Source: Candidatus Altimarinota bacterium
GTDB taxonomy: Bacteria; Patescibacteriota; Gracilibacteria; JBDHUY01
Direction: 5' to 3'
Assembly (NCBI GenBank): GCA_039809385.1
Contig: JBDHUY010000004.1
Location: forward strand, 71,298-135,297
DNA length: 64,000 nt
Positions 56,256-60,464 of this stretch are shown here, in pieces. The notes beneath the pieces were generated by a model. It did no database searches, was not told the origin of the DNA, and saw only the letters and a list, made by a program, of their open reading frames with translations. Each line of letters begins with the position of its first letter. Positions within the stretch are counted from its first letter, which is position 1. A program made the position numbers and the translations under genes.

Positions 56256-56386
56256 GTGAAAAGTGAAAAGTGAAAAGTGAAAAGTCAAAAGTGAAAAGTG
56301 AAAAGTGAAAAGTGAAAAGTCAAAAGTGAAAAGTCAAAAGTCAAAAGTCAAAAGTCAAAAGTCAAAAGTCAAAAGTCAAAAGTCAA
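56256..56386. repeat. Heptamer tandem repeat GT(G/C)AAAA x18 plus a partial
   Basis: Counted 9 GTGAAAA and 9 GTCAAAA units. Confidence 0.97.
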
Positions 56387-56431
56387 TATCCTTATCCGTA
56401 TGTTCCATACATAATACATTATACCTAATAC

Positions 56432-57155: not shown

Positions 57156-58322
57156 TCACCTCTCTCTGGCCTGAAATGTTTCAAGGGTTTCTGCCAAATC
57201 TTCAATGAGGTCTGAAGAGTCTTCTATCCCTACCGAAAAGCGTACCAACCCGTCGGGTAGCCCGGCTTTTTTGCGTTCCTCGGCAGGAATCGACGCATGG
57301 GTCATGCTGGCCGGGTGATCTACCAGCGATTCGACGCCGCCCAGACTTTCGGCGAGCGTGAAAAGTTCGAAAGAGGCGATAAACCGCTTCATTATTTCCA
57401 GCTCAAAATCGAATTCCGCCGACACGATCCCGCCGAAGCCCGACATCTGTGCTTGCGCCACTCCATGATTCGCGTGACTGGCTAACCCCGGATAGTAGAC
57501 CTTTTTTACTTTCGGATGTTGTTGTAGAAACTCGGCGATTGCCATAGCATTTTTCTGGTGTTGCTCCATACGCAATCCGAGCGTCTTGATCCCGCGCGAG
57601 GTCAGCCATGCGTCGAACGGACTGGGGTTGAGCCCCATGGCTTTTCGTAAAAAATCGGCTTGCTCTTTGATGCCGCCCTGATTCGTAATAAGAGTCCCGC
57701 CGATAATATCCGAATGGCCTCCTAAATATTTTGTGGTACTGTGAATGACGACGTCTGCTCCCAGAGCCAGCGGATTTTGGAAATACGGTGTGGCAAACGT
57801 ATTGTCGACCGCGACGATGGTATTGTATCGATGCGCCAGTCCGGCGACTTTTCTAATATCCGTAATCCGTAGTAGGGGATTGGTAGGGGATTCGATAAAA
57901 AGCAGGGCCGGTTGTTCCTCCAGGCTTTTTTGTACCGCTTCCAGATCGGAGGTATCTACCTGCAGGAGGCGGATGCCGAACTTCTCGAATACCTGCCGAA
58001 ACAGGCGGTATGTCCCGCCGTACATGTCGTACGATGCTACTACCGTATCGCCGCTTTTGAGCATGCTCACGAGTGCGGTAATTGCGCCTAATCCCGAAGA
58101 GAAAGCAGTTGCGAACTTGCCCTGTTCCAGGCTGGCCAGCGTTTCTTCCAGGTGGGTGAAATTGGGATTGCCGGCCCGGGTATAGTCGTATCCTTTGTGA
58201 GCCCCCGGAAACTCCTGGGCATAGGTCGAGGTCATATAGATCGGCGGAATGACCGAGCCGGTATGCGGATCCGGTTGTTGTCCGGTATGAATGGCGTGAG
58301 TGAGAAAAGAACGTGGTTTCAT
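57156..58322 (-). CDS. Cystathionine gamma-lyase/synthase (Cys/Met metabolism PLP enzyme)
   Basis: YTRAGNP, FSSG, ESPTNP, VDNTF, HSTTKYLGGHSD (PLP Lys) and SLGGVESL motifs. Confidence 0.95.
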   Translation of the reverse strand: MKPRSFLTHAIHTGQQPDPHTGSVIPPIYMTSTYAQEFPGAHKGYDYTRAGNPNFTHLEETLASLEQGKFATAFSSGLGAITALVSMLKSGDTVVASYDMYGGTYRLFRQVFEKFGIRLLQVDTSDLEAVQKSLEEQPALLFIESPTNPLLRITDIRKVAGLAHRYNTIVAVDNTFATPYFQNPLALGADVVIHSTTKYLGGHSDIIGGTLITNQGGIKEQADFLRKAMGLNPSPFDAWLTSRGIKTLGLRMEQHQKNAMAIAEFLQQHPKVKKVYYPGLASHANHGVAQAQMSGFGGIVSAEFDFELEIMKRFIASFELFTLAESLGGVESLVDHPASMTHASIPAEERKKAGLPDGLVRFSVGIEDSSDLIEDLAETLETFQARER

Positions 58323-58358
58323 GATTGATAATGAGAAGTTAGGATAAAAATAAAACAC

Positions 58359-58390
58359 AAAAAAACTCCCGGACAGAGGCGAGAGTTTTT
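58359..58390 (-). terminator. Attenuator terminator in the leader of the Cys/Met enzyme
   Basis: mRNA AAAAACTCTCG-loop-CGGGAGTTTTTTT, 36 nt before the ATG. Confidence 0.8.
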
Positions 58391-58415
58391 ACATTGTGTC
58401 GGCGGTATGGAAATT

Positions 58416-58505
58416 TTATGCACGACAACAGCAAAAAGCGCCTCTGGAACAGCGGTTGAATCGACAACAAGTCTGAGAAGAAAATTGCGAGACGACTGCG
58501 TGCAT
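58416..58505 (-). CDS. Cys-rich leader peptide (29 aa)
   Basis: MHAVVSQFSSQTCCRFNRCSRGAFCCCRA*; 6 Cys; contains CAGAGGCG, complementary to the terminator. Confidence 0.8.
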   Translation of the reverse strand: MHAVVSQFSSQTCCRFNRCSRGAFCCCRA

Positions 58506-58597
58506 GTAAATTTTTTTAATATCTTGTAGTCTTATAATACCTTTTCTGTTTCCAAACAACAACTATAATCTTTTTAGTCCTCTGAAATGATCGGTTA

Positions 58598-58625
58598 TTG
58601 ACGATCTCCTTTTTTCTCCTAAACT
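58598..58625 (+). promoter_or_regulatory. Sigma70-type promoter upstream of the tandem Arg leaders
   Basis: TTGACG-N16-TAAACT. Confidence 0.6.
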
Positions 58626-58648
58626 TAGAGTAAATTTCTCCACAGACT

Positions 58649-58735
58649 ATGCAACTGCTTTGTATCAACCGGCGACGACGAGTTTCTCAAAAATCTTTCC
58701 TGTCGAAAGTCGGTTTAACGTTGCTTCCTCTCTAG
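58649..58735 (+). CDS. Arg-run leader peptide 1 (28 aa)
   Basis: MQLLCINRRRRVSQKSFLSKVGLTLLPL*; codons CGG CGA CGA CGA. Confidence 0.7.
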   Translation: MQLLCINRRRRVSQKSFLSKVGLTLLPL

Positions 58736-58758
58736 TTTTTCTCTTTTGCAACGACCAT

Positions 58759-58790
58759 AGAGCTTTCCCGACGGGAAGGCTCTTTTTTTT
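58759..58790 (+). terminator. Attenuator terminator 1
   Basis: AGAGCTTTCCC-GAC-GGGAAGGCTCT followed by T7. Confidence 0.82.
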
Positions 58791-58817
58791 GCGTATTCTC
58801 TTCTTATTTTTTCTATC

Positions 58818-58895
58818 ATGAATTTCTCGTTTTATTCTTTCTCTCTTATCTCCTCTCTGCGACGACGCTTTTTCCATTGCGGAAAAGGGCCCTAG
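58818..58895 (+). CDS. Arg-run leader peptide 2 (25 aa)
   Basis: MNFSFYSFSLISSLRRRFFHCGKGP*; codons CGA CGA CGC. Confidence 0.72.
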   Translation: MNFSFYSFSLISSLRRRFFHCGKGP

Positions 58896-58920
58896 TTTAT
58901 GATGATTAGCGTTTTCTCTC

Positions 58921-58965
58921 AAAGCCTTTTTCCAAGCTGATCCAATCTGGAAAAAGGCTTTTTTT
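58921..58965 (+). terminator. Attenuator terminator 2
   Basis: 14-bp stem AAAGCCTTTTTCCA/TGGAAAAAGGCTTT plus T-run, 23 nt before ATG 58989. Confidence 0.85.
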
Positions 58966-58988
58966 ATTTCTTTTTATCGTTTTGTTTC

Positions 58989-60464
58989 ATGAATGACTCT
59001 GTATCTTCTGTTCCGGTTCTTGAGCCAGAGATTGATTCTCCCTCTATCTCTATCGAGAAACCGCCTAATATTTCTCACTCCGTTTCGGCATCGACCCGTA
59101 CGGCCTTAGCAAGTTTGGGCATACCGCAAAACCAAATCGCTCTGCTCGAGCAACATTTGGATACGGCCGGGCAGTTTGTGCATGCGGTCGATGCCGGTTT
59201 TTCCGAAAGTTTCGAATGGCTGAAAACTTCGTTATTCCAGACAATCGGAAATTCCGATCAGGTCGCAGCGCTCTTGTCGATCGTGCGGAATAATTTTCGC
59301 GGACAACCGGTTACGTATGGCGAAAACGGCTACGACTCCTACCAATCGCGCCGCTGTTTTTCCAAAGTTGTCAGCGAGGCCTTGCTAGTAGGGGGAGTCT
59401 TGTTGGAAAGTTCTCTGTTAGGGCTAAAGCTAAATCTGAGCGAAGTACAACAGATGATCGGTTCATCGCTCGCCATTGAGGAAGCTCACCAGGCTATTCT
59501 GATGCAACTGGCTCAAACCTATGGTGGCAGGCAGGATTTTTTGTTTCCCGGCGTCATCCCGTCATCTCCCGATACTCCCGGACTGGATGGTTTAGCGTAT
59601 CAGGCTCTCAAAGGAACCCCGCTCAAGACCGTCAGGTCTCTGACGGGGATTGGCGGCTTTCGTGCCGATAACGACCGGAGCTATGCGGTCGATTTGTCCA
59701 GTTTTGCTCATATGAAGGTGCAGGAGGATCGCCGCTATTATCCGGGTGTCGGCATATTCTACCTTTTGCAGAATATGCCCTTTGAGCAGATCCCTTTAAG
59801 TATAAAGAAGGATGAACGGTATGAAAAGGTACAGGAAAGATTAAAGAGATTCGTCACTGCGCTCAAAGCCGCGCCGACCGAGAAGTTTTCGGGTGTGTCG
59901 GTACTTTGTTCCGCCTATATTCCTCCATGGCACGAGTTAAAAACGTTCCAGGGCTTTATGACCAAACAGTCGCTGCCGTTGGCAGAATCGTTTCATTCGG
60001 CTTCCTACGAATTCATGGTTTTGAAAAAAATCTGCCAGGCTATAGGGAGCGAAAAAGAAGTAACGCCGGCTCTGTTAAATGAACTGGACGGACTTGAGAA
60101 AAAACTGGGCTATTGCTGGAGCTTTAATTCCACGGTCCATCTTTCCTGGACGAATGATCTCTCCTATCTGGCGCACGATCTTTTCGGTAAAATGACCAAT
60201 CAGCTAGGGGATACCTGCAGCAGATTCGGTTTAAGTTACAAGGGCAAAAGCCTGGAGGTCCGCGAATACGTTTTCGGTGTTGACAGGAACTTTCCCGCCG
60301 GCGTCGCCGGGGGCAAAGCGTATGCGGTGCGTTTCTATGCCAAAAGCGAGCAATTTGAGGGAAAGTATGAAACTTCGGTGCTCTTGCCGCATGATCCGTT
60401 TTGGCAAAAGATAGAAAAGCAGGGATTTCTGAAAGCAACTTTATCTCTCTTAGCTTCCAAATAA
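58989..60464 (+). CDS. Hypothetical protein (491 aa)
   Basis: Long ORF, no recognised family motif. Confidence 0.75.
   Translation: MNDSVSSVPVLEPEIDSPSISIEKPPNISHSVSASTRTALASLGIPQNQIALLEQHLDTAGQFVHAVDAGFSESFEWLKTSLFQTIGNSDQVAALLSIVRNNFRGQPVTYGENGYDSYQSRRCFSKVVSEALLVGGVLLESSLLGLKLNLSEVQQMIGSSLAIEEAHQAILMQLAQTYGGRQDFLFPGVIPSSPDTPGLDGLAYQALKGTPLKTVRSLTGIGGFRADNDRSYAVDLSSFAHMKVQEDRRYYPGVGIFYLLQNMPFEQIPLSIKKDERYEKVQERLKRFVTALKAAPTEKFSGVSVLCSAYIPPWHELKTFQGFMTKQSLPLAESFHSASYEFMVLKKICQAIGSEKEVTPALLNELDGLEKKLGYCWSFNSTVHLSWTNDLSYLAHDLFGKMTNQLGDTCSRFGLSYKGKSLEVREYVFGVDRNFPAGVAGGKAYAVRFYAKSEQFEGKYETSVLLPHDPFWQKIEKQGFLKATLSLLASK

Follow-up and report, generated by a model that had tools for sequence, protein, structure and literature searches.

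A poly-cysteine leader and an intrinsic terminator form a probable cysteine-sensing transcription attenuator upstream of a cystathionine gamma-lyase-type gene in a candidate-phyla bacterium

How could a candidate-phyla bacterium adjust the expression of a cysteine-metabolism gene to its supply of cysteine? Bacteria of these phyla have few recognisable regulators and are mostly unculturable, and their nutrient sensing is largely obscure. The question is raised by positions 58359 to 58505 of a 64,000-nucleotide stretch of the Candidatus Altimarinota bacterium assembly GCA_039809385.1 (contig JBDHUY010000004.1; "the window" below means this whole stretch), where a short open reading frame (ORF) with many cysteine codons and an intrinsic terminator precede a gene for an enzyme of the cystathionine gamma-lyase/gamma-synthase type on the minus strand. 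We conclude that this element is very probably a ribosome-mediated (leader-peptide) transcription attenuator which would sense charged tRNA-Cys; elements of the same type recur in many related ultra-small bacteria. The source genome, G000, consists of 26 contigs and is 95% complete; indirect evidence suggests that the host belongs to the candidate phyla radiation (CPR), in a class which includes Peribacteria.

The leader ORF (58416..58505, minus strand) starts with an ATG at 58505-58503, ends with a TAA at 58418-58416 and codes in 29 codons for the peptide MHAVVSQFSSQTCCRFNRCSRGAFCCCRA. Six of these codons specify cysteine, exactly as claimed in an initial annotation made from the sequence, and they are grouped as a pair, a single codon and a triplet. 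Cys13-Cys14 (TGT TGT, 58464..58469) form the first run and the proposed sensing site, Cys19 (TGT, 58449..58451) stands alone, and Cys25-27 (TGC TGT TGT, 58425..58433) form the second run. In all six frames of the 1.87-Mb G000 genome, only 12 of the 16,377 small ORFs (sORFs) of 8 to 45 codons starting with ATG contain at least six cysteines, and all ten other sORFs with three consecutive cysteines (CCC) that were checked lie inside long ORFs. No Shine-Dalgarno (SD) sequence was detected ahead of the leader ORF. The absence of SD sequences at both the leader and the gene is normal in this organism, because an SD-like 4-mer precedes only 12 of 688 long-ORF starts in G000, which is below the rate expected for random 14-mers (8%); the bases ahead of the ORF starts are G-poor and T-rich. 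The leader is presumably translated, and its transcription probably starts shortly upstream of 58505.

Between the leader and the gene, an intrinsic terminator extends from 58390 to 58359 on the minus strand. It consists of the 5' arm AAAAACUCUCG (58390-58380), an 8-nt loop CCUCUGUC (58379-58372) and the 3' arm CGGGAGUUUUU (58371-58361), which form a stem of 11 pairs with 4 G-C pairs, and the U-tract reaches to 58359 as a run of seven T (58365-58359). The end of this T-run is separated from the ATG of the gene (58322) by 36 nt, the distance given in the initial annotation. The leader segment CAGAGGCG (58446-58439) is exactly complementary to CGCCTCTG (58381-58374) in the arm and loop of the terminator, so the 8-nt complementarity reported there also holds. 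The minimum-free-energy fold contains this pairing and lengthens it to about 25 pairs. The resulting antiterminator has a 5' strand at 58420..58446, which starts with CAGAGGCG and appears in the minimum-free-energy, centroid and masked-ribosome folds, and a 3' strand at 58374..58401 (CGACACAAUGUAAAAAC..CGCCUCUG), which occupies 8 of the 11 bases of the terminator 5' arm together with part of the loop. The leader/terminator duplex reaches -18.5 kcal/mol, whereas dinucleotide shuffles of the leader segment gave a mean of -8.0 with a standard deviation of 2.2 (p = 0.001). The pattern of leader and terminator is not due to chance. Contigs from four sequencing runs over 58200-58700 showed no variants, the whole stretch being spanned by X1 only.

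The direction of the switch was calculated by folding the leader RNA with a masked ribosome, for which 28 nt around the A site (-15 to +12) were made unpairable. With a ribosome at Cys13 or Cys14, the probability of the terminator, P(terminator), was 0.02-0.06, and it rose to 0.69 at Cys19, 0.76 at Cys25-27 and 0.64 at the stop codon. The automated rule for recognising terminators is sensitive to the T-run threshold: requiring at least four T selects a 16-pair stem in G000, which shifts the values to 0.21 for Cys13, 0.49 for Cys14 and 0.95 for the stop codon. With either stem, a stall at Cys13-14 is predicted to free the antiterminator, as had been suggested. A footprint centred on Cys19 hides CAGAGGCG, and the CCC run at Cys25-27 lies within the antiterminator 5' strand, where it pairs in the folds with an ACA-rich tract immediately 5' of the terminator; a comparable inner pairing is present in the fold of a relative, G021. 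The caveat in the initial annotation that the CCC run may complicate the logic of the switch was right; a stall there predicts termination.

These data suggest the following course of events. Transcription would begin a short distance ahead of 58505, with co-transcriptional translation of the 29-codon leader. If charged tRNA-Cys were scarce, the first ribosome would stall at Cys13-14 and leave the RNA from 58446 on naked; the segment 58446-58420 could then pair with 58401-58374, the 5' arm of the terminator would be sequestered, and the polymerase would read into the lyase gene. If charged tRNA-Cys were ample, the ribosome would proceed across 58446-58420 to the stop codon and block the antiterminator, the hairpin 58390-58361 would form with its U-tract, and transcription would stop 36 nt ahead of the gene. 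The induced enzyme would most likely free cysteine from cystathionine, which is probably scavenged. While the ORF, the terminator, their alternative pairing, their conservation and the computed direction of the switch are observed features, the response to cysteine is what we infer from them.

One check that had been proposed, whether orthologous leaders retain the Cys codons, turned out positive. A search of the class for homologues of the enzyme at E <= 1e-60 returned 10 of 401 genomes, 7 of them with proteins at least 58% identical, and six of these seven close orthologue loci have a poly-Cys sORF with a hairpin and T-run behind it. Together with 12 further leaders, this yields 18 distinct poly-Cys leaders with hairpin and T-run, which precede cystathionine-gamma-lyase-type orthologues, operons of a cystathionine beta-synthase (CBS)-like gene and a lyase gene, or CysK/CBS-like genes. 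Nearly all of them come from the class of G000, and one (G675, MKIAFEVNCCAILP) comes from another class of the phylum. As in G000, the leader stands directly upstream of the lyase gene in G021 (MNSFFTANACCILETSSRICCCC), G170 (MRISLSATVCCCCCLI) and G129 (MYRHTVTFSSPCCCFGP, which continues under code 25), whereas in G086 (MIPTASCICCCTIEHCSRAT) and G344 (MIYSQLISNCCCLSKEAPLES) it is located upstream of a CBS-like gene directly preceding the lyase gene. Further examples are L176 on a metagenome contig (MKRTSITTIVCCCITLVSVPRAMR) and L030 (MKHSFYNDSCCCTLKSRLRACCCC), and 9 of another 27 CysK/CBS-like class loci also had leaders. Some genomes of the class read TGA as sense, and the orthologue of G129 contains 14 in-frame TGA codons. 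The 18 peptides have 6 to 30 residues and share no common sequence besides the Cys runs, the first of which begins at codons 6-13 in 16 of them.

The association with cysteine genes was also evident from a count at 31 class loci, where a Cys run occurred in 12 of 24 intergenic sORFs lying at most 250 nt ahead of a target gene versus 2 of 176 elsewhere. The corresponding Fisher p of 3.6e-11 overstates the case because related genomes are not independent, and the count excludes the TGA-recoded loci L101 and L202 and misses L210. Of the two sORFs found elsewhere, one is antisense to a leader; the other (MKTTNQIALACCCPCNHCRAY, locus L227 of G255) lies 483 nt upstream of a CysK-like gene, farther than any other, and may serve a longer operon as its leader.

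Among the wider set of homologues, leaders were rare, and about 150 loci from other phyla lack one. Leaders were present at 2 of 78 homologue loci in genomes (L030 and L052), the leaderless ones belonging mostly to Bacteroidota, Chlamydiota and archaea, and at 2 of 74 homologue loci in metagenomes (L177 and L176). The few exceptions look like kin of the class: L052 is the same place as G021, the leader peptide of L177 is that of G344, and the enzyme tree places the L176 enzyme within the class sequences. L030 is contained in a 2.8-Mb bin labelled Bacteroidetes, yet the sister of its enzyme (L037) belongs to a 0.9-Mb bin with the label Falkowbacteria. The tree was calculated by a quick method; it shows the class sequences as an unresolved basal grade of a clade shared with Chlamydiota and Bacteroidota, and no direction of transfer of the enzyme gene can be claimed from it.

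We extended the folding analysis to the 14 of 18 leaders in which the terminator was found by script. A switch was scored if a ribosome at the first Cys at least halved P(terminator) relative to a ribosome at the stop codon or, alternatively, at least doubled the sequestration of the terminator 5' arm in RNA truncated ahead of the 3' arm. The expected switch was obtained for nine of these leaders (G000, G021, G086, G344, L176, G675, G075, G152 and G168). For 7 of 13 leaders, the antiterminator duplex was stronger than its shuffles (p <= 0.05), and the combined Fisher p was 5e-10. In G021, L030, G086, L176 and G675, a hairpin directly follows the Cys run, and its 3' arm can alternatively pair with the terminator 5' arm, which results in the full classical layout of 1:2, 2:3 and 3:4 pairings. 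An alignment of these five leaders, which can be trusted only between the Cys run and region 2, showed 82.9% of the cells of this hairpin paired, compared to 31-54% if the partner column was slid; four of its nine pairs were changed on both sides, a number reached by 25 of 500 shuffles. The leaders are too divergent for a covariance model.

A layout with two Cys runs was found in 5 of the 18 leaders (G000, G021, L030, G056 and G106) and is probably functional because of this recurrence. The first run of these leaders starts at codons 10-13 and the second 10-12 codons later, directly before the stop codon or, in G000, two codons before it. As a guess, the second run may stabilise the antiterminator at the RNA level, or it may park ribosomes beyond the first run on region 2 and thereby sharpen the off state.

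The regulated gene (57156..58322, minus strand) codes for a protein of 388 amino acids (aa), a pyridoxal phosphate-dependent enzyme of Cys/Met metabolism of the cystathionine gamma-lyase/gamma-synthase type which matches Pfam PF01053 with an E-value of 1.6e-150. Its best NCBIfam match is PRK07811, cystathionine gamma-synthase (500.5 bits, under the cut-off of 513), and the profile of MccB-type cystathionine gamma-lyase/homocysteine desulfhydrase is matched with 475 bits (cut-off 594). The closest solved structures are those of cystathionine gamma-lyases (7ba4 as the nearest, and 7d7o). At six related loci (G086, G344, G069, L176, L030 and L037), the lyase gene directly follows a CBS-like gene, whose product has cystathionine beta-synthase TIGR01137 as its best match at 409.6 bits; it remains under the cut-off of 510 because the C-terminal part of the profile is absent. 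The pairing with CBS-like genes and the similarity to gamma-lyase structures would fit reverse transsulfuration from cystathionine to cysteine, and the enzyme most likely releases cysteine from cystathionine. The earlier suggestion that the enzyme makes cysteine thus gains support, although it is still deduced from relatives and structures.

The G000 genome encodes one tRNA-Cys (GCA), a cysteinyl-tRNA synthetase and an S-adenosylmethionine (SAM) synthetase, and the machinery needed for sensing charged tRNA-Cys is in place. Neither a PALP-family gene (CysK or CBS; search including tblastn) nor an adenosylhomocysteinase gene was found in this 95% complete genome. Because of the missing CBS- or CysK-type gene, cystathionine would have to be scavenged, and this is probably how G000 obtains it. 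Of the sequencing runs listed for the organism, 16 entries are of DNA, mostly from activated sludge and wastewater, and none is of RNA.

Several observations weigh against an attenuator of this kind. A candidate promoter was recognised by eye at 58534..58562 on the minus strand (TTGTTG at 58562-58557, a 17-nt spacer and TATTAT at 58539-58534), which would imply a 5' untranslated region of about 25 nt, the best -10-like box being located 28 nt ahead of the leader ATG. This promoter is weak, with a -35 box matching at three of six bases, and a consensus scan of the minus strand from 58506 to 58893 returned no site. The association of leader and enzyme is also incomplete: at 18 of the 27 CysK/CBS-like class loci no leader was present within 450 nt, and none was found at five of six further loci of the phylum or upstream of the CBS-lyase pair of the seventh close orthologue, G069, which is distributed over two contigs. 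The L037 locus (1-400, in the bin labelled Candidatus Falkowbacteria) carries a degenerate leader (MSLSATALLIFN) without Cys and has lost the T-run; its terminator region is alignable with that of L030, and the remnant looks like a recent loss of the attenuator. The 388-aa protein reaches no NCBIfam equivalog cut-off. At the RNA level, the fold of the 217-nt region is unexceptional (z = -1.54, with 14 of 200 shuffles equally stable). The G000 leader contains no protective 1:2 hairpin of the trp paradigm, and because region 2 is therefore unprotected, the untranslated RNA is predicted to fold as the antiterminator and to read through, with P(terminator) of 0.00 for the 11-pair and 0.04 for the 16-pair stem. 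Four of its six Cys codons (Cys19 and Cys25-27) sit where a stall predicts termination instead of read-through. Among the other leaders, the calculated switch was absent or reversed in 5 of 14 (G170, G129, L030, G394 and G157). No convincing antiterminator was found for G170 and G129, and the terminator of G157 begins 1 nt past the stop codon, where a ribosome stalled on the C-terminal CCCC would cover it. In the four leaders without a terminator found by the script, a weaker hairpin with T-run is visible by eye.

The failure of folding to reproduce the switch in five leaders would suit a mechanism in which cysteine is still sensed by ribosome stalling, with translation initiation, mRNA decay or Rho as the readout instead of intrinsic termination. 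The Cys leader Ms5788A of Mycobacterium smegmatis, the only one that has been investigated by experiment, acts on translation (10.1101/834739). Nevertheless, we consider such a readout unlikely here: all 18 leaders have a hairpin directly followed by a T-run, 14 by script and four by eye, the competing duplexes are stronger than shuffles, and the hairpin of G000 ends 36 nt ahead of the start codon in a genome with practically no SD sites to sequester.

A reversed or biphasic logic would make more of the free RNA, which in G000 folds as the antiterminator, and of the four Cys codons with P(terminator) of 0.69-0.76. A ribosome stalled at Cys19 or Cys25-27 would mask the antiterminator and low cysteine would switch the gene off, while free or rapidly translated RNA would read through and the enzyme would handle a surplus of sulfur amino acids, for instance by acting as a desulfhydrase, an activity that is possible in the enzyme family as judged from the molecule names of the matches. 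Both the inverted switch and the role in handling excess appear very unlikely to us. The pioneer ribosome reaches Cys13 as its first hungry codon. The first run begins at codons 6-13 in 16 of 18 leaders, and in most of these the free RNA is computed to terminate and a stall at this run to antiterminate. Moreover, the leaders of the relatives regulate CBS-lyase pairs and cysteine-synthase-like genes, whose products make cysteine. It is highly improbable that the sORF codes for a Cys-rich micropeptide with a function of its own, for instance a metal binder or precursor peptide, or that it is a chance ORF before an ordinary hairpin: small Cys-rich peptides do exist and the stability of the whole region is unremarkable, but the 18 peptides have nothing in common beyond their Cys runs and vary from 6 to 30 residues, the leaders are tied to cysteine-metabolism genes with a terminator between each ORF and its gene, and ORFs with at least six Cys are as rare as described above.

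The leader-peptide attenuator favoured here would work like the classical ones (trp, his, leu, thr, phe and ilv of Proteobacteria, trp and ilvB of Actinobacteria, his of Bacilli). As in those systems, a short ORF contains tandem codons for one amino acid, the one to be sensed, at about codons 9-14; the structural gene is preceded by an intrinsic terminator, and the antiterminator, which cannot coexist with it, has its 5' strand within the ORF or directly behind it. The G000 element shows all the structural features of leader-peptide attenuators except the 1:2 hairpin, which is present in the five relatives with the full classical layout. It differs from the classical cases in its Cys codons, in its occurrence in a candidate-phyla class nearly without SD sequences, in the predicted read-through of untranslated G000 RNA and in the second Cys run of five leaders. 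According to Naville and Gautheret 2010 (PMC2965389), Proteobacteria and Actinobacteria were at that time the only groups with known leader peptides, and these authors added Bacilli.

Poly-Cys leaders have indeed been described in Actinobacteria, as the initial annotation had stated. Seliverstov et al. 2005 (PMC1262725) reported Cys-run leaders before actinobacterial cysteine genes, including cbs; there, the runs lie near the stop codon, conserved terminator-type hairpins are absent and Rho-dependent termination is proposed, whereas hairpin and T-run are present here. In mycobacteria, Canestrari et al. 2020 (10.1101/834739) described poly-Cys sORFs on leaderless mRNAs which exert translational control. 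As is proposed for ours, these leaders sense Cys-tRNA by consecutive Cys codons in a short first ORF and control cysteine genes at several loci per genome, a "ribulon"; they differ in that, in the case studied, a duplex hides the ribosome-binding site, whereas every leader of our set has a hairpin and T-run. No SD sequence precedes the G000 lyase gene, and the competing structure is a terminator located 36 nt before its ATG. A 2026 paper (PMC13236596) still cites the mycobacterial mechanism as translation attenuation. S-box/SAM riboswitches and Cys/Met T-boxes control similar genes by a choice between terminator and antiterminator, but they sense SAM or uncharged tRNA directly by large conserved folds. 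Searching 57900-59300 against Rfam (E <= 10) yielded no family at threshold; the sub-threshold matches, at chance level, included Phe_leader on the opposite strand and, over the element itself, Leu_leader with 20 bits (E 0.3; gathering score 50), and only tRNAs reached the gathering score at 11 related loci. No paper on an intrinsic terminator behind a Cys or Met leader, or on attenuators of candidate-phyla bacteria, turned up in our literature search, which left subscription journals mostly uncovered.

Leaders rich in methionine codons were observed besides the Cys leaders and may be the more novel lead. On contig C1 of G000 (minus strand, about 140249-140140; L189, about 3750-3640), a hairpin and T-run lie behind the Met-rich sORF MMMAIMMMMRLLRRQMV, and a segment able to pair with the terminator 5' arm was noted by eye. 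The gene behind it codes for a 396-aa protein with borderline similarity to SAM hydrolases (PF01887 with 26.0 bits at a cut-off of 26.3; NF053629 with E 5.9e-4). Elsewhere in the class, this gene was found in 1 of 400 genomes (G127, L197), also behind a Met-rich sORF (MFMMMRPPGR) with hairpin and T-run. In G031 of the same class (L003, about 1330-1425), the sORF MMQMMMLLSRGLVFGR and a hairpin with T-run are located upstream of an enzyme paralogue which is 40% identical to the G000 enzyme and matches O-succinylhomoserine sulfhydrylase best (487 bits, cut-off 522); by its sequence, this sORF is a Met leader before a methionine-pathway gene.

Additional features were noted on the plus strand of the window. 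The divergent intergenic region contains a promoter-like site at 58598-58625 (TTGACG, 16 nt, TAAACT), followed by an sORF with four consecutive Arg codons at 58649-58735 (MQLLCINRRRRVSQ...) and, 3' of it, a strong hairpin with eight T at 58759-58791. The element from 58598 to 58791 could be a small RNA, another leader or a product of chance. A second long hairpin with T-run, at about 58920-58975, lies just before the start of a 491-aa protein (58989) without any Pfam match. Finally, the spacer between two minus-strand genes at 56305-56400 shows a tandem repeat in its translation (KSKVKSQ x3).

The comparison supports cysteine specificity combined with a terminator readout in a new phylum, apparently widespread within one class. 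This would extend terminator-based attenuation to cysteine and to organisms initiating translation without SD sites. A broader reading, which we put forward tentatively and rate somewhat below even chances, is a lineage-wide ribosome-read regulon of these reduced genomes, in which Cys attenuators control cystathionine lyase, CBS-lyase and cysteine-synthase-like genes and Met attenuators control SAM-hydrolase-like and homocysteine-synthase-like genes, with the two-run Cys leaders acting as a second checkpoint and not as a simple on/off switch. If this were true, no methionine-sensing leader-peptide attenuator would have been described before the Met-codon leaders. The leaders may also aid annotation, because genes preceded by a Cys or Met leader probably serve to supply the amino acid concerned, and with about 190 nt the element is accessible to work in vitro or in a model host without culturing the organism. 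For the biology of these bacteria, a conserved attenuator that can be read from sequence would mean that cysteine supply limits the cells and that they respond by switching on salvage or reverse-transsulfuration enzymes without a protein regulator.

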